IMG/VR virus record: IMGVR_UViG_2563366903_000024
Strand: one strand, 5' to 3'
Length of the DNA stretch: 30,618 nucleotides
Source of the DNA: a virus
Taxonomy: Duplodnaviria > Heunggongvirae > Uroviricota > Caudoviricetes
Both the position numbers and the translations under genes were made by a program. Position 1 is the first letter of the stretch; every line of letters starts with the position of its first letter. Of this stretch, positions 8,216 through 20,776 are shown piece by piece. Under the pieces are notes generated by a model that saw only the letters and a list, made by a program, of their open reading frames with translations, ran no database searches and was not told the origin of the DNA.

Positions 8216-8221
8216 GCATGT

Positions 8222-8250
8222 AAAAAGGCCCCTGCGATGAGGGGCCTGAG
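8222..8250 (-). terminator. Rho-independent terminator downstream of the RM specificity gene
   Basis: 8-bp stem AGGCCCCT / AGGGGCCT with 6-nt loop, followed on the minus strand by TTTTTAC. Confidence 0.45.
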
Positions 8251-8618
8251 AGTATTACCTGGTTTCAGTTAACTGCATAGTGCCGGGTGCCTCCCGGTGA
8301 GTTCAGCCCGGTGCCACCGAACCCGCGTCTTTCACATTGCCTGTGACATTAAAAATGCCAGCCCGCACCAGCCGCCCCGCCGCTGAGGGGGATTCACCAT
8401 GCGTTGCGATTTTTAACAAATTCACCGCCAGCCAGACAATCATCAACTTGCTGAATTGTGAGGTATTTAAAAATTTCCCCGATTAACTGATACCCTGCTA
8501 ACCACCTGTTGTTTTCTTTTTCAGCAACAAAAAAGCCCGCTCATCGGCGGATTCGGCTGCGTGGCAATGTAACCATTCTTATCATGATATGAGGATTTTT
8601 ACGATTGTAAAATGTTTT

Positions 8619-9713
8619 TTAACTGACACCAGAATCATCATAACCGCGACTTGTTATAGCTTGCCTGTATGCGTTCATTTTGCGTTCTGCGTACTGGACA
8701 ACATCTTTAATGACAAGCTTATGAACAACTGAAATAAGGTCATTTATATAACAAAAGTCAGGTGACTTATTTTTCACTGGCAACCAAATAACATCGTTCT
8801 TAATTTTTCTATTACTAACACTATCCCCCCATGAATATTTATGTGAAATAGACCTATAAATACATGAAATAATGCCCAAATAAGCAAACTTTGTCCTTCC
8901 ATCCTCATTGTTAACATAGAGTCGCAAATTATGACTGTCGTTTGAAAAAAAGTCTCGCTCCTGATAAGTTACAACGAATGTCTTACCACCAATAAAAATA
9001 CAGTTCCCTTTTTCCAAGAGTGAGTCATCATAGGCGATATAAGAACTAACAGAGTTATTATCACGGCTAGCACAAAGATAAGGAACATCCCCACTATTTT
9101 CTATGATGTCTCTAGACAATATGTTTCCTGTATTGCACACTGAGAATAACTCAGTAACAGGAAAGCCTGAAAATTCAATATTTTTAAAATGTTCCAGGAT
9201 AAGATAATCTTTTTCCGTTAGTTGGTAATCACTCAGCCCAGCAGCTATCAGGTATGCTTCCAGCTCTTCTATATGGGCCGCTTCCAGCTCTTCTATATAA
9301 TTATCCATAAAAAACCAGTCAATTTCATTATTTTTCACTGGTAATGAGATGAAATATTCTCCATCTCTGAGTTTGGAACTCGATAACTGTTGACCATAAT
9401 TAAAACGCCCCTTTAAAGCTTTATTAATCATACTGGCAACATACAGTCCGCGCTTTGCATTAAAGTCGGACTTACTTGATTTTAATGTAAGAACATGCAC
9501 CTTCATTTCTACGCTGGCACAATAAGGATGATAAAAAGCATCTCCAAAAAAATTAACGCTTATAAAATTTTCATAATGCCTTGCATCATCCATAAACTCG
9601 GTATCAAACTCTCCGATGATACCGTTTTGATCGCTCTTTGCTGAAACACGTTTGATTTTGCCTGGTTTTAATCTTCCTGAGGAGATAAGCGAGCCTGTGC
9701 TCACATAGAACAA
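8619..9713 (-). CDS. HsdS-like specificity subunit (two target-recognition domains around a helical spacer)
   Basis: 364-aa protein with two-fold internal architecture: each variable half ends in a similar segment (ISLPVKNNEIDWFFMDNYIEELE and IWLPVKNKSPDFCYINDLISVVHKL) followed by a predicted helix. Apparent TTG start with AGGA upstream, 60 nt after the methyltransferase stop. Confidence 0.5.
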   Translation of the reverse strand: MFYVSTGSLISSGRLKPGKIKRVSAKSDQNGIIGEFDTEFMDDARHYENFISVNFFGDAFYHPYCASVEMKVHVLTLKSSKSDFNAKRGLYVASMINKALKGRFNYGQQLSSSKLRDGEYFISLPVKNNEIDWFFMDNYIEELEAAHIEELEAYLIAAGLSDYQLTEKDYLILEHFKNIEFSGFPVTELFSVCNTGNILSRDIIENSGDVPYLCASRDNNSVSSYIAYDDSLLEKGNCIFIGGKTFVVTYQERDFFSNDSHNLRLYVNNEDGRTKFAYLGIISCIYRSISHKYSWGDSVSNRKIKNDVIWLPVKNKSPDFCYINDLISVVHKLVIKDVVQYAERKMNAYRQAITSRGYDDSGVS

Positions 9714-9772: not shown

Positions 9773-11734
9773 TTACTTTCCCGCAAAATTGTTTTCACCT
9801 TGTTTTTTCAGTAATTGCGAGACCTCCCATGCAAGGTAATCACCTACCGTCTTTTTGAAATCCTCCAGCGTTGGCCTAGCATCTACTGGCCTGGTCTGAT
9901 TCCAGTCCTCACCACTATCAGGATCGATTGTTCCCTCAAAATATTCATCCTCCGTAAAGATATTAAGGCAACCTTTCCCGAAGTGAACCAGATCCACAAC
10001 CTCCTGATAACGCTCTTTTGCACGATCGGCATCAACAAGATTGTTTCTTGCCTTTTTGCGATTAGAGCGAGCGTAGCCGTCATTGGAAAAGTCGATAAAC
10101 TTAACAGCCTGTTTCGCGTTATGCGGAATTTTTACCTGAAAAACGTAAATGTACGTCTGAACGCTTGATTTACCAATAAACAGATCCGCAGGCATTTTGA
10201 TGCTTGCCAGCAAGGTATTTTCCTTGAGTATTTTTTTGTTGTACTCCGTAGCCTTTCCTGTGCCAGCTGAACTCTGGATAATCACTGCAGCATAGCCTTT
10301 ATCCATCATCGACAGCGCCTTCTGCACGAAAATCATGCCGTTACCTTTAGCTGAATACGGAGGATTGAGAATAAATGCGTCCGCAGGGAATTTTTCTCCT
10401 GTTTTCCCAAATCCATACTTGCCGTCAAAATCGGCCAGCGAGTCTTTATTGAGGATATTCGAGCTACCATCCCCCATCAAAATCATATTCAGGATGGCCA
10501 GCATATAAATACTGGATAACACCTCAAGGCCAAGAAGCTGTTCAGCCTTGATTTGCGCTTCCTTAAGTTGTAGTTCGTTCGGTGAGTGAATATTTTCTCT
10601 GGCGTCAATGAGCATTTCATTCATTGCAGCCACAAGCAATCCCGCAGAACCTGTAGCAAAATCCCACACATAGGAATCTTTGTTTACTCTGGCGAGTCGT
10701 GCCAGCAATGTGGCAACATAAGGTGGTGTCAGAACGACGTCATTGAGCTTGTCCTGCGTAAATCCAAGCCAGCGATACATCTCATTAAACAGTTTGCCCG
10801 TAAAATCGGTGGTCAGTCCAATTTTGTAATACTCCCCAAGATCATCAACAACTTTAACAAACACGCGCTTTAACTGGCTTTCACCGTTGACTGGTTTGTT
10901 AATGTTTTCAGTCCACAGCGTATTTTGCAACGAGCGCAAAATCATTTCTCTTTTTGTTTCAGGAACAGCTTTCAGCCTTAAAAAATTCCTTATTTTCCTG
11001 AAAATAATATCACCATCACGCAAGTCCTCCTCCGTTGAAGAGGTCAGTTCTTTTTTATCCAGCGGTGCTAACTTTCCCGGAATCCCCAACGTTGCAATAA
11101 CGGTAGCCACAACAAGGTAAACACGATCGCTTTCACCAAGCCCCTTTTCATTCTGGTAAATATCGTTATTCAGACGGGAAAGTCGCGTGTCTATCTCTTC
11201 CTCTTTGCTGGCCTTGATTTTTTCCAGTTCTTCGGGAGGAAGATTAAGCAGCTTTATCTTGTTGAGAAATCCATCAACATTTTTGTCAGCAAGGAACGAT
11301 AAGTCGGTGAATTCACCAACCTTCTGTCCGGCTCCTAAATTATTCTTTGATACGTACCACACGCCGATTTCATGATGCAGTTCGCCTGTACCATCATCGC
11401 GCCAGCCGGTCATACCAATAGCAATAATATCAGGGTAATTGGTGAACTGAAGAAGTGCGTTGGCATAATGGACTGCGCCATTCACCGCGTATCCATTAAT
11501 ATTTTTAAAATTCCATTCTTTTCTGGCATCTTTGTTCTCAATAATACCGTTGCTGCCAAGTCTGATAAGCCTGTCCTTGTAGCCTTTATACTCGATGAGA
11601 ACGGGATACTGCTTGCCGTATTTGTCCTTAACAAGGAGTTTTACGTCGGGACGATTACCGCCTGCGCCGCCATTTTTCGAAAAATAAGCGTCCAGTGCGT
11701 TATCGATCTCTCCGTTAAGTGATGCATTCTGCAA
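9773..11734 (-). CDS. N6-adenine DNA methyltransferase with N-terminal PD-(D/E)xK-like region (BcgI-A-like); body ORF currently out of frame with its ATG
   Basis: 653-codon ORF with AdoMet motif (VWDFATGSAGLL) and catalytic NPPY motif (ILNPPYSAKG). N-terminal third has a possible nuclease motif (RPD…x16…EYK). No ATG near its 5' end; the frame is open upstream through the 7-nt repeat tract. Confidence 0.7.
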   Translation of the reverse strand: MQNASLNGEIDNALDAYFSKNGGAGGNRPDVKLLVKDKYGKQYPVLIEYKGYKDRLIRLGSNGIIENKDARKEWNFKNINGYAVNGAVHYANALLQFTNYPDIIAIGMTGWRDDGTGELHHEIGVWYVSKNNLGAGQKVGEFTDLSFLADKNVDGFLNKIKLLNLPPEELEKIKASKEEEIDTRLSRLNNDIYQNEKGLGESDRVYLVVATVIATLGIPGKLAPLDKKELTSSTEEDLRDGDIIFRKIRNFLRLKAVPETKREMILRSLQNTLWTENINKPVNGESQLKRVFVKVVDDLGEYYKIGLTTDFTGKLFNEMYRWLGFTQDKLNDVVLTPPYVATLLARLARVNKDSYVWDFATGSAGLLVAAMNEMLIDARENIHSPNELQLKEAQIKAEQLLGLEVLSSIYMLAILNMILMGDGSSNILNKDSLADFDGKYGFGKTGEKFPADAFILNPPYSAKGNGMIFVQKALSMMDKGYAAVIIQSSAGTGKATEYNKKILKENTLLASIKMPADLFIGKSSVQTYIYVFQVKIPHNAKQAVKFIDFSNDGYARSNRKKARNNLVDADRAKERYQEVVDLVHFGKGCLNIFTEDEYFEGTIDPDSGEDWNQTRPVDARPTLEDFKKTVGDYLAWEVSQLLKKQGENNFAGK

Positions 11735-11802
11735 CTTGTAATCAAGCCTGTAAGATTTAAGCCATGAGTTCGCCAGTTCGGTAATTTCCGGCTCAACAGA
11801 TT

Positions 11803-11931
11803 TTACAGACTTTCTTGATTTACTGCTGGTCGCTGGTCGCTGGTCGCTGGTCGCTGGTCGCTGGTCGCTGGTCGCTGGTCGCTGGTCGCTGGTCGCTGGT
11901 CGCTGGTCGCTGGTCGCTGGTCTGGCAGCAT
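11803..11931 (-). other. Leader ORF from the RM gene's true ATG through the heptanucleotide tract to a premature stop (OFF-phase product)
   Basis: SD AAGGA lies 7 nt upstream of ATG 11931-11929. Translation reads MLPDQ(RPATSDQ)n through the repeats and stops at TAA 11805-11803, in the 0 frame versus +1 for the methyltransferase body. Confidence 0.6.
11825..11922 (-). repeat. Perfect tandem heptanucleotide repeat, 14 copies (GCTGGTC on plus, GACCAGC on coding strand)
   Basis: Counted directly: 98 bp of uninterrupted 7-nt periodicity between the ATG at 11931 and the methyltransferase ORF body. Confidence 0.95.
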
Positions 11932-12105
11932 AAAATCATCCTTTTATGAAAATCAACGTTTTTTGAGCACTCGCACACAAAAAATTACCGCATTGGTTGC
12001 AACGACAACCTGCATTTTGCGGAGCATATGACAAATAAAGTACGGGTGCGTTGAGGATGCCAGACACATCAGAGGTGGCGGGAGATTACTCCCCTGCCTG
12101 GTCTC

Positions 12106-12261
12106 TTACTTCTCAGATTCGTAGTCTACGAAGACAGCGACCTCCGTCTGGCCGGTTCGGATTCGTACCTCGCAGAAGTCTTTCCTCGTTACCAGTGCTA
12201 TCACTACGACGGTAATACAGATGACGATCAGGGCGATTAACATCGCCTTTTGCTGCTTCAT
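12106..12261 (-). CDS. hok: Hok/Gef-family type I toxin (small membrane peptide)
   Basis: Unlisted 51-aa ORF MKQQKAMLIALIVICITVVVIALVTRKDFCEVRIRTGQTEVAVFVDYESEK, very like E. coli Gef/HokC. SD AAGGAG before the ATG. Confidence 0.8.
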   Translation of the reverse strand: MKQQKAMLIALIVICITVVVIALVTRKDFCEVRIRTGQTEVAVFVDYESEK

Positions 12262-12431
12262 AGCCTACTTCTCCTTGCCTTTCGGCACGTAAGAGGCTAA
12301 CCTAAGTTTGTAAGTCATAGATTTGGCCTCAGATTAATGTTAAGCGTCCTGCAAGACGCGTAATGTTAACTGGGGCTTTTCTCTGTCTGCCTTACGGCTG
12401 CATGCCCGAGGCAGACAGCCTCAAGCACCCG

Positions 12432-12464
12432 CAGCTATTCTACAGTAAAAACTCGCGCTTTCAA
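12432..12464 (-). promoter_or_regulatory. Sigma70-like promoter immediately downstream of Q (candidate late promoter pR' or hok promoter)
   Basis: Minus strand TTGAAA (12464-12459), 16-nt spacer, TAGAAT (12442-12437). The -35 overlaps the Q stop codon. A 10-bp inverted repeat (12383-12392 / 12409-12418) follows. Confidence 0.4.
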
Positions 12465-12886
12465 TTTCCCGCACGTCCGGCAAACTGACTGGCCTGTGAT
12501 CCTGATGGTTCACGCTCAACGTACCTGTCCATTTCCAGCTTTACTCCCTGCATGATCAACATCCCCTCAATAATACCTTCTGCTTTTTGCAGTACCCGCC
12601 CGGCCCAGCAATCAGAGCGCCCATGCTTACGGCCCAGTGACATAAGCGTCATCCCGAACACATAATAATCATACAGAAAATCATGCAAATCGCTGTTGTT
12701 GACGTTCAGTTGCGCCATGCAATTGCTGATAATCAGCGCATCGTCATCGGTACACTGAGGCCGTGATTTAACCTTTGACGGGATCAGCCCCTTAAATCCG
12801 GCGGCAATGGGCGACCAGCTCACATCCTCATGATTATTGGCCACCCATGCGCCCCAGCGTTCAAGCACCTGCTGAATATCACGCAT
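12461..12886 (-). CDS. Q: Late-gene antiterminator Q (phage 21 / DLP12 QuuD type)
   Basis: Protein [45 protein letters not shown]… closely resembles E. coli QuuD. Start at ATG 12886 with SD AAGGGGAAAG, overlapping the NinH stop by 8 nt; the longer track ORF start is rejected. Confidence 0.8.
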
Positions 12887-14401: not shown

Positions 14402-15094
14402 TCAGAATTCAAATTGTCTTGCTCTTAGTTGCGCCAGCATACTTCTGGCCCTGTGCACCGTATAGTTGGCGGGATCAAGTTTTGCTGCTTCGCGGAGCAA
14501 TGTGTCGCGAGTCCGGTTGGTTATATGACGAGTTTCGTAGGCCAGATCAAACAGCTTTCCATAGTAATCAGAGTTCAGTTCTCTCATGACGGGGTATAGC
14601 TGTTTACTGAGTTGTTGTGCTTTTTCCATCCAGAGTTGCATGTAACAAAGGAGGATGATTTCCTCGGCTGTGAATTGTGGCTGAATCTGCGGCTGCTGTT
14701 CGGTTGGTGCTGTTTTTCCCTGGCTGAAATAGCAGTCTTCCAGTTTTTCGAACACTTCCCACGCCTGATCGGTTTCTAGCATTTTGGCGTGACGGGCTGC
14801 GCCTCGTTCTGTCCAGAGGATGAGGGAGCGGGTTTTTGGGGAAATTTGTAACCCTCTTAAAGATGGTTGCAAATTTTGCGACTCGTTTAAAACTAGTCGC
14901 AAATTTCTGAGTTCATCACCAACAGCTTTAAAGAAGTGCTTTCCCTCAATAAACCGAGATTTATTTTCATGGTGATTCTGCTGTATACGGATTGTTTCTG
15001 TTCCATAAAGGCGGGCAAGCAACTCAGTTGTGATTACCGGAATCTGGTTATAGGTAACAGGGGAAAGGTTTTTGACAGAGATTTGAACAGTCAT
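14402..15094 (-). CDS. Antirepressor-like protein (ORF6N/KilA-type N-terminal domain)
   Basis: 230-aa protein whose N-terminus (…VTYNQIPVITTELLARLYGTE…NKSRFIEGKHFF…) fits the ORF6N antirepressor pattern. Confidence 0.55.
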   Translation of the reverse strand: MTVQISVKNLSPVTYNQIPVITTELLARLYGTETIRIQQNHHENKSRFIEGKHFFKAVGDELRNLRLVLNESQNLQPSLRGLQISPKTRSLILWTERGAARHAKMLETDQAWEVFEKLEDCYFSQGKTAPTEQQPQIQPQFTAEEIILLCYMQLWMEKAQQLSKQLYPVMRELNSDYYGKLFDLAYETRHITNRTRDTLLREAAKLDPANYTVHRARSMLAQLRARQFEF

Positions 15095-15261
15095 AACGAC
15101 CTCGCGTTTCGATAATTTTTACCTCACCACCTTCAGGTGCTAATCATCGTGGTGGCGAACTGTGCGGGGTTAGCACTACCGGTCGAAACATCCGGCGAGC
15201 CTTTCGGCTCCCCCACACAGCCCGCCATAAATCGCGAATGTGACTGTGCCTAGCGCATAAA

Positions 15262-15286
15262 AAAACCGCCAGCGCGGTTATGCACC
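15262..15286 (-). terminator. Hairpin plus T-run on the minus strand
   Basis: AACCGC-cag-GCGGTT stem followed on the minus strand by TTTTTTT. Which transcript it ends is unclear. Confidence 0.3.
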
Positions 15287-15411
15287 GTTTCGATATCCGG
15301 GGTGCTAATCCCGACGCCAGATTTTGCTGGCGTGCGAAGAATATAATCCCGGATATGTGTTGTCGTCAACATACCTTGAATGTATATAACAAATTTGTTA
15401 TGTTTACTCTC

Positions 15412-20370: not shown

Positions 20371-20667
20371 TCAGATGTTCATCAGGATTTGCTCAGAACG
20401 TCCGGCCCCAACCGGACGTTTTTTATTTGCATGAACGTTAATGGCATGCTGGAAAGCCCGGCTGATCGGACTGATATCAGATGCCATCTGGAACGCGCAT
20501 AAAATCGCCGCGATGTATCGCCAGTCGGTACGACTGACCTTCGATTCATGGCAGCCAATCATCTTCGCCAGTCCCCTTTGCGTCAGAGCTGACAGGTTGA
20601 TAAGTAAATCCGTTTCAGCGCGATCGATATCGCGCTGTGACAGTTTGCTGTAACTTGTTTGTGACAT
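20371..20667 (-). CDS. cII: CII-like transcriptional activator
   Basis: 98-aa protein whose C-terminus (…NVHANKKRPVGAGRSEQILMNI) parallels lambda CII (…TNKKRPAATERSEQIQMEF). Lies downstream of cro. Confidence 0.75.
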   Translation of the reverse strand: MSQTSYSKLSQRDIDRAETDLLINLSALTQRGLAKMIGCHESKVSRTDWRYIAAILCAFQMASDISPISRAFQHAINVHANKKRPVGAGRSEQILMNI

Positions 20668-20735
20668 TTGTTAATTTTCCTATATTGATATGGGGTTAAG
20701 CGGCAATCCCCAATGGGTTTGCCACTGATGTTTGC

Positions 20736-20776
20736 TCACCCTGTTAGAGGTGAACGACCAGCAATGTTAAAGAGCG
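20736..20776 (-). promoter_or_regulatory. nutR candidate (boxA plus boxB hairpin) between cro and cII
   Basis: Minus strand CGCTCTTTAACATTG (boxA-like, same core as the nutL copy) followed by an imperfect hairpin with loop CTAAC. Confidence 0.5.

Follow-up and report, generated by a model that had tools for sequence, protein, structure and literature searches.

A probable hokW-type hok/mok/sok cassette in an island between the antiterminator gene Q and the late promoter of a Q933-family prophage

The hok/mok/sok (parB) locus of plasmid R1 is a post-segregational killing system built from a stable toxin mRNA that is locked by pairing of its 5′ and 3′ ends, a leader ORF, mok, whose frame differs from that of the hok gene it overlaps, and an unstable cis-antisense RNA, Sok. 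Among chromosomal relatives, hokC (gef)-mokC-sokC of E. coli K-12 is followed by IS186, and its 3′ end with the fold-back element fbi is missing. The phage-borne system hokW-mokW-sokW of the Stx2 phage 933W and the Sakai prophage Sp5 (AF125520; Takada et al. 2021, PMC8621323) has been characterized experimentally: HokW was reported to be 44% identical to R1 Hok, and both the toxicity of hokW and its neutralization by Sok were shown (PMC8621323). Upon Sp5 induction sokW disappears and HokW is seen about 1 h before endolysin, while deletion of the hokW-sokW locus halves phage release (PMC8621323). In 933W, hokW lies near the end of the record beside tail-fibre genes, on the strand opposite to the Q-stx genes.

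A second point of reference is the late control region of 933W-like phages, in which Q933 is followed by a pR′-qut-tR′ block that overlaps the Q stop codon. The GenBank features of 933W (AF125520) place pR′ at 20666-20693, qut at 20707-20714 and the terminator at 20726-20748, with both pR′ and qut marked as putative. Here we analyzed a 30,618-nucleotide stretch of viral DNA (IMG/VR record IMGVR_UViG_2563366903_000024), referred to below as the window, which carries a Q gene of the same family and the same late block. Unlike in the 933W-like arrangement, the block of the window stands 3.85 kb away from Q, separated from it by an inserted hok/sok cassette and restriction-modification system. No tRNA genes are present in the window, and a stx gene was not detected among its ORFs downstream of pR′.

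The first gene after Q (stop codon at 12463-12461) is a 51-codon ORF at 12261-12106 on the minus strand, encoding MKQQKAMLIALIVICITVVVIALVTRKDFCEVRIRTGQTEVAVFVDYESEK. It is preceded by a Shine-Dalgarno (SD) sequence, AAGGAG (12276-12271, minus), located 9 nt 5′ of the ATG. The peptide matched the full Pfam HOK_GEF profile (PF01848, positions 1-42) with E = 7.1e-22 and 77 bits against a cutoff of 22, and it is 92% identical to HokW of 933W/Sp5 (47/51 residues) and 82% identical to K-12 HokC. A PADLOC scan of Hok gave no match to any model and the NCBIfam Hok matches fell below their curated cut-offs, so the family call is based on Pfam and Rfam. This evidence is far beyond chance, and the locus is a genuine hok/sok-type toxin-antitoxin cassette, which bears out the initial annotation of a Hok/Gef-family ORF with an SD sequence directly downstream of Q. 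That annotation also described the ORF as unlisted, which holds for the ORF track available to it but not for RefSeq, where the identical peptide is WP_000813244.1, ‘Hok/Gef family protein’.

Upstream of the ORF, the promoter scan returned a single σ70-like site between 11700 and 12600, TTGAAA-16-TAGAAT (12464-12437, minus), which matches the consensus at 10 of 12 positions and whose −35 element contains the Q stop codon TGA. The number of such sites is not above chance (1 found versus 0.7 expected); the promoter is credible by its position, because its −10 element sits 7 nt before the conserved 5′ end of the hok mRNA, GGGUGCUUGAGG, at 12430, which coincides with the start of the Rfam model. 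This arrangement of −10 and start site is kept in hokW and in K-12 hokC, while the −35 lies in lineage-specific sequence. The distance to the hok ATG is 169 nt from the start site (G12430) and 176 nt from the −10, in agreement with the earlier description of a promoter that overlaps the Q stop about 170 nt 5′ of the ORF. The perfect 10-bp inverted repeat that had been noticed between promoter and ORF is also present, formed by CTGTCTGCCT (12383-12392) and AGGCAGACAG (12409-12418); it lies within repeat I1 and constitutes the first hairpin of the hok leader.

An Rfam search for hok/sok elements, suggested at the outset, assigned positions 12430-12256 (minus) to RF01794 (‘sok’) over the full model (1-157) with 118.4 bits, a gathering score of 59 and E = 1.2e-26. 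The orientation of this match is that of the hok sense strand and its end falls in the hok AUG; it supports a conserved Sok-target leader and does not directly support an antisense transcript. The 5′-terminal tac element of the leader (12430-12419) pairs with fbi (CCUCAA-C-GCACCC, 12056-12044, minus), which lies in repeat I6 and is conserved in hokW, in both the minimum free energy (MFE) and centroid folds of 12430-12036 (z = −6.1); this pairing rests on folding, with no covariation signal because the available sequences are nearly identical. In the fold of a 3′-truncated hok mRNA, considered for tac-ucb refolding, the 5′ end re-pairs locally, although details of a single-sequence MFE structure are unreliable. 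A weak candidate terminator, a CCGCA...UGCGG hairpin followed by UAAUUUUUU, is located at 12022-11979 (minus), outside the hokW-homologous region, and was not called on this strand by the terminator scan.

On the opposite strand, a predicted sok promoter, TTGCCT-17-TAACCT (12275-12303, plus), could be read from the sequence. It is a weak consensus match (7/12) that the promoter scan did not call, yet it is identical in 933W, and primers YO-421/YO-422, used to mutate the sokW ‘−10’, target the same AGGTTA/TAACCT element (PMC8621323). The predicted Sok RNA (12310-12385, plus) maps onto the annotated sokW and sokC through the alignments, and both annotations put the Sok 5′ end at window position 12310. 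It would consist of a single-stranded 5′ tail and a long hairpin followed by CUUUUCUCUG, a U-rich tail ending near 12385, with a folding energy of −29.4 kcal/mol (z = −5.3), and it shows complementarity to the SD and the start codon of mok. At the sequence level, a predicted cis-antisense Sok unit with its own promoter, 5′ tail and terminator hairpin is present.

The mok leader ORF, homologous to mokW and mokC, spans 12318-12265 (minus) and comprises 17 codons (MTYKLRLASYVPKGKEK); it starts with the ATG at 12318 behind an SD sequence, GAGG, at 12330-12327 and ends at TAG 12267-12265, 3 nt, or two codons, before the hok AUG. The mok frame and a Sok-like RNA had been left open in the initial annotation and are now placed by homology to mokW/sokW and mokC/sokC.

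Overall, the cassette is most similar to hokW-mokW-sokW, with 91% nucleotide identity over 12443-12036, that is, from the −10 through fbi, and the two share the leader hairpins, the sok promoter and hairpin, tac and fbi. They differ in the −35 region, by a 10-nt indel, and in the sequence 3′ of fbi, including the candidate terminator, which is unrelated. Their placement differs as well: in contrast to hokW, hok of the window lies directly after Q and is co-directional with the early-right operon. K-12 hokC shares the −10, the start site, tac, the first hairpin, the mok start and the position of the Sok 5′ end, whereas an 18-nt extension of the Sok hairpin is found in the window and hokW but not in sokC. 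In both 933W and K-12, mok runs in frame into hok, giving a Mok-Hok fusion, while mok of the window stops at TAG. Compared with R1, the architecture is the same and the mechanism is presumably the same by analogy, but the cassette resides in a prophage and its mok shares the frame of hok and terminates immediately ahead of it. Taken together, the locus very probably represents a complete hokW-type hok/mok/sok type I cassette with its own promoter, situated in an island between Q and pR′.

The Q protein of the window (12886-12461, minus) is 141 aa long, belongs to the Q933 family (Pfam Phage_antitermQ, 1.1e-47; RefSeq WP_001204831.1) and shares 69% amino acid identity with Q of 933W and a distant match with the Q21 structures 6P18 and 6JNX. 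The last 16 Q codons are lineage-specific, and the Q tails align to 933W weakly as protein and not as DNA; such a tail may reflect read-through of Q into foreign DNA, a possibility with no bearing on the identity of the cassette. DNA homology to more distant Q933-family relatives stops at about 12509 and resumes at about 8626, and by this criterion the ~3.9-kb segment in between (~12509 to 8627) is an inserted island that separates Q from its cognate pR′-qut-terminator block. The block itself, aligned to AF125520, occupies 8611-8529 (minus) and comprises pR′ (TTTACA-16-TATCAT, 8611-8584), a conserved initial transcribed segment (GATAAGAATGGTTACATTGCC) and a terminator at 8551-8529 (CCGCCGATGAGCGGGCTTTTTT). 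The promoter and initial transcribed region are identical to 933W at 49 of 53 positions, with 4 substitutions, and the block is followed by nanS-p, DUF826, lysozyme and Rz.

A late block was located in 27 IMG/VR loci whose Q933-type Q has 144 aa, and there it begins 12 nt ahead of the Q stop. Among loci with a 141-aa Q, all those with enough flanking sequence (12 NCBI loci, one of which is the same place as L002, phage PhiR12_3 and 6 IMG/VR loci) instead have the block 3.8-4.5 kb downstream of Q, where it follows the specificity gene of the island at a distance of 8 nt. The hok leader begins 31 nt after the Q stop in 17/17 IMG/VR loci with a 141-aa Q. Diverged late blocks follow the 126-aa and 135-aa forms of Q; loci with a 121-aa Q had no recognizable 933W-type block within 6 kb, so the pairing of Q with the block is limited to the 141-aa and 144-aa forms and, in diverged state, to the 126-aa and 135-aa forms.

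Beyond hok/sok, the island contains a hypervariable 7-nt repeat, a BcgI-like restriction-methylase gene and a specificity subunit gene. The restriction endonuclease-methyltransferase (9773-11734, minus) is of type IIG/IIB and was identified by PADLOC (REase_MTase_IIG, 6.4e-228, spanning profile positions 36-717 of 721) and Pfam (N6_Mtase). The specificity subunit (8619-9713, minus; PADLOC Specificity_II, 9e-21; Pfam Methylase_S) ends 8 nt before the pR′ −35, where the late block begins. Between hok and the restriction-methylase gene lies a perfect tandem repeat, (GCTGGTC)x14, at 11825-11922. Loci that otherwise hardly differ from one another carry anywhere from 3 to 120 copies of it, against 14 in the window.

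The repeat reads (CCAGCGA)n on the minus strand, just upstream of the restriction-methylase gene, and many IMG/VR contigs end within it. Two minus-strand ORFs, 11931-11803 (ATG 11931) and 11978-11820 (GTG 11978), cross it as (DQRPATS)n; in the window neither start shares the reading frame of the enzyme body, and in L014 the GTG frame is fused to the enzyme, giving a 718-aa product. From these sequences the repeat looks like the driver of a phase-variable restriction-modification system. On the opposite strand, RefSeq ORFs over the repeat (L002, 6470-7036; L008, 3955-5165) are labelled ‘YXWGXW repeat-containing protein’ and ‘hypothetical protein’, and the equivalent repeat ORF of PhiR12_3 is labelled ‘EmrB/QacA’; the opposite-strand ORFs across the repeat are almost certainly artefacts.

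RefSeq places the identical Hok peptide directly after Q (WP_001204831.1) in several E. coli genomes, O111:H8 strains among them, and phage PhiR12_3 has the same Q-hok arrangement with a Hok peptide that differs at one residue. The exact peptide was present in 2426 blocks of the assembly collection, and in all ten contexts listed for it the gene order was Q, Hok, methylase, specificity subunit. Two relatives, L015 (9576-10156) and L020 (9476-10156), carry the same Q-hok-methylase-specificity island together with a 315-aa RIP-family ORF about 0.5 kb after the pR′ block; judging by its length, this ORF is probably Shiga toxin 1 subunit A.

Two further groups of Rfam matches were recorded in the window. 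An STnc100 match of 149 bits (8216-8432, minus) lies about 100 nt downstream of the late-block terminator and ends in its own terminator at 8247-8226; in the Stx phage L004 the equivalent region is found after stxB and before nanS-p. Matches to C4 antisense RNA, the a1/b1 targets and isrK (15148-15346, minus) lie directly upstream of an ORF6N/P22_AR_C antirepressor gene (ORF 14402-15094). This region looks like a c4-ant module in the style of P1/P7; isrK was first described in the Salmonella prophage Gifsy-1.

A working model of the cassette can be outlined. Judging by sequence and homology, the promoter at 12464-12437 would give a hok mRNA of about 400-450 nt starting at 12430, and in the predicted fold of the full-length RNA the 5′ tac pairs with fbi (12056-12044) at the 3′ end. 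The convergent plus-strand promoter at 12275-12303 would produce a Sok of about 75 nt, complementary to the mok ribosome binding site and start codon. By analogy with R1 hok/sok and Sp5 hokW-sokW, this Sok would in a lysogen block translation of mok and hence the coupled translation of hok; upon loss of Sok, Hok would enter the inner membrane and the cell would be killed or lysed. As pR′ lies downstream of hok, late transcription modified by Q would not traverse the toxin gene. The only sense phage transcription able to enter hok would be read-through of the early-right operon (nin genes, Q) after induction, and it should do so because the terminator scan predicted no minus-strand terminator between Q and hok; such read-through would run against sok transcription. 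Read-through of this kind is consistent with the timing of HokW in Sp5.

The promoter at the Q stop occupies the canonical position of pR′, and it had been suggested that pR′ and qut should lie there, with the toxin under late or Q control; as an alternative, the promoter might belong to hok itself. The first suggestion, under which the site would be pR′ or otherwise Q-responsive and Hok a late, Q-controlled product, can point to its position, to the lack of any other predicted promoter in 11700-12600, and to a −35 that, as in 933W, starts 44 nt past the final conserved codons of Q (GAGCGTGAA) and is followed by a 16-nt spacer. We nevertheless consider it very improbable. The hok promoter and start region is identical to pR′ and the initial transcribed region of 933W at only 16 of 68 positions and the tail preceding the −35 at 13 of 44 (12517-12437 versus 933W 20613-20693), both of which are at chance level; the hok module itself supplies the −10 and the transcribed sequence, which are also kept in hokW and hokC, whose loci have no relation to Q; and an intact 933W-type block stands at 8611-8529, before the lysis genes, as in all relatives with enough flank. 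The motif GATAAGARTGGTTAC is found exactly once in the window, at 8569-8583, and is absent near hok, behind which lie the repeat and the restriction-modification system and not the late genes. Descent of the hok promoter from pR′, considered on account of the common offset, was rejected with the same chance-level identity, and we treat the 44-nt offset as a coincidence. A pR′ in the 106-nt spacer after hok (12040-11935) was also rejected: the spacer matched PhiR12_3 only, contained no predicted promoter and folded with z = −0.6 against shuffled sequences. Since the late promoter is 3.85 kb further downstream, hok probably has its own promoter, as the second suggestion held.

Whether the hok module with its own promoter is still active, and what it serves, admits two further readings. 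The mok TAG is present in 24/24 loci of the sublineage with 99% identical Q (23 distinct places, L002 and L017 being the same place), versus CAG in 120/120 other IMG/VR hok loci sampled; CAG is also the codon in the sister sublineage, which has a Q protein of 87-88% identity. In that sister sublineage hok is frameshifted by a T insertion in 4/7 loci (L008, L034, L038 and L039), a nonsense codon, TAG, occurs at hok codon 4 in 2/24 loci of the 99% sublineage (L032 and L033), and one hok copy is marked as a frameshifted pseudogene in RefSeq. Thus, hok at the Q-proximal site was inactivated at least twice in sister lineages, and the site appears to tolerate or favour its inactivation. These losses, together with the truncated hokC of K-12, would suit an attenuated or inactive relic, like most chromosomal hok loci of K-12, in which the mok nonsense codon uncouples hok and neither toxin nor role is left. 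We regard this as possible but unlikely for the window, since the Hok ORF is intact there, as are tac, fbi, the Sok hairpin, both SDs and both promoters, and the exact peptide is very widespread in the assembly collection. A stop codon 3 nt before an AUG with its own AAGGAG SD is, moreover, a classic layout of termination-reinitiation coupling; with the mok TAG, coupling of hok would need this route, or may be weakened.

For an intact cassette, the main role could also be addiction or defence and not help with lysis, in that it would stabilize the adjacent restriction-modification island, or the prophage, through post-segregational killing, or make infections by other phages abortive. The constant linkage of hok/sok to the restriction-methylase and specificity genes in this lineage points in this direction, as do the other cargo, including a type II toxin-antitoxin pair, that relatives hold in the same place and the inhibition of T4 by R1 hok/sok, as cited in PMC8621323. 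We judge such a main role to be unlikely, given that no PADLOC model matches Hok and that the sole direct data on the closest homologue indicate help with lysis and phage release.

The cassette is already known, since RefSeq annotates the exact peptide beside Q and its relative hokW-sokW has been tested experimentally. Our literature search found no report of hok between Q and a late promoter, and the additions made here are modest, namely the nonsense codon in mok and an island between Q and pR′ that combines a toxin-antitoxin cassette with a restriction-modification system. For annotation, the promoter at the Q stop should not carry the label pR′, as the real late promoter is 3.85 kb downstream behind the island; this matters for any comparison or cloning of pR′ regions from Stx-like phages, given that the same island separates Q from stx1 in some Stx1 relatives.

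Biologically, the locus is one more setting for a known toxin-antitoxin family and implies no new mechanism. In other relatives the slot between Q and pR′ holds a higB/higA type II toxin-antitoxin pair (L006, 3479-4144) or a 197-aa ORF (L005, 3530-4123), and in both the pR′ block resumes right after the insert. We put forward only tentatively, and with considerable doubt, that the Q-pR′ junction of Q933-family phages is a recurrent cargo slot which receives early-right read-through transcription on induction, ahead of the late genes, and that hok is repeatedly attenuated there. If true, the repeated attenuation would suggest that early-coupled expression of Hok is costly, and such expression could adjust the timing of lysis and, in L015 and L020, the Stx1 relatives with this island, the release of toxin.
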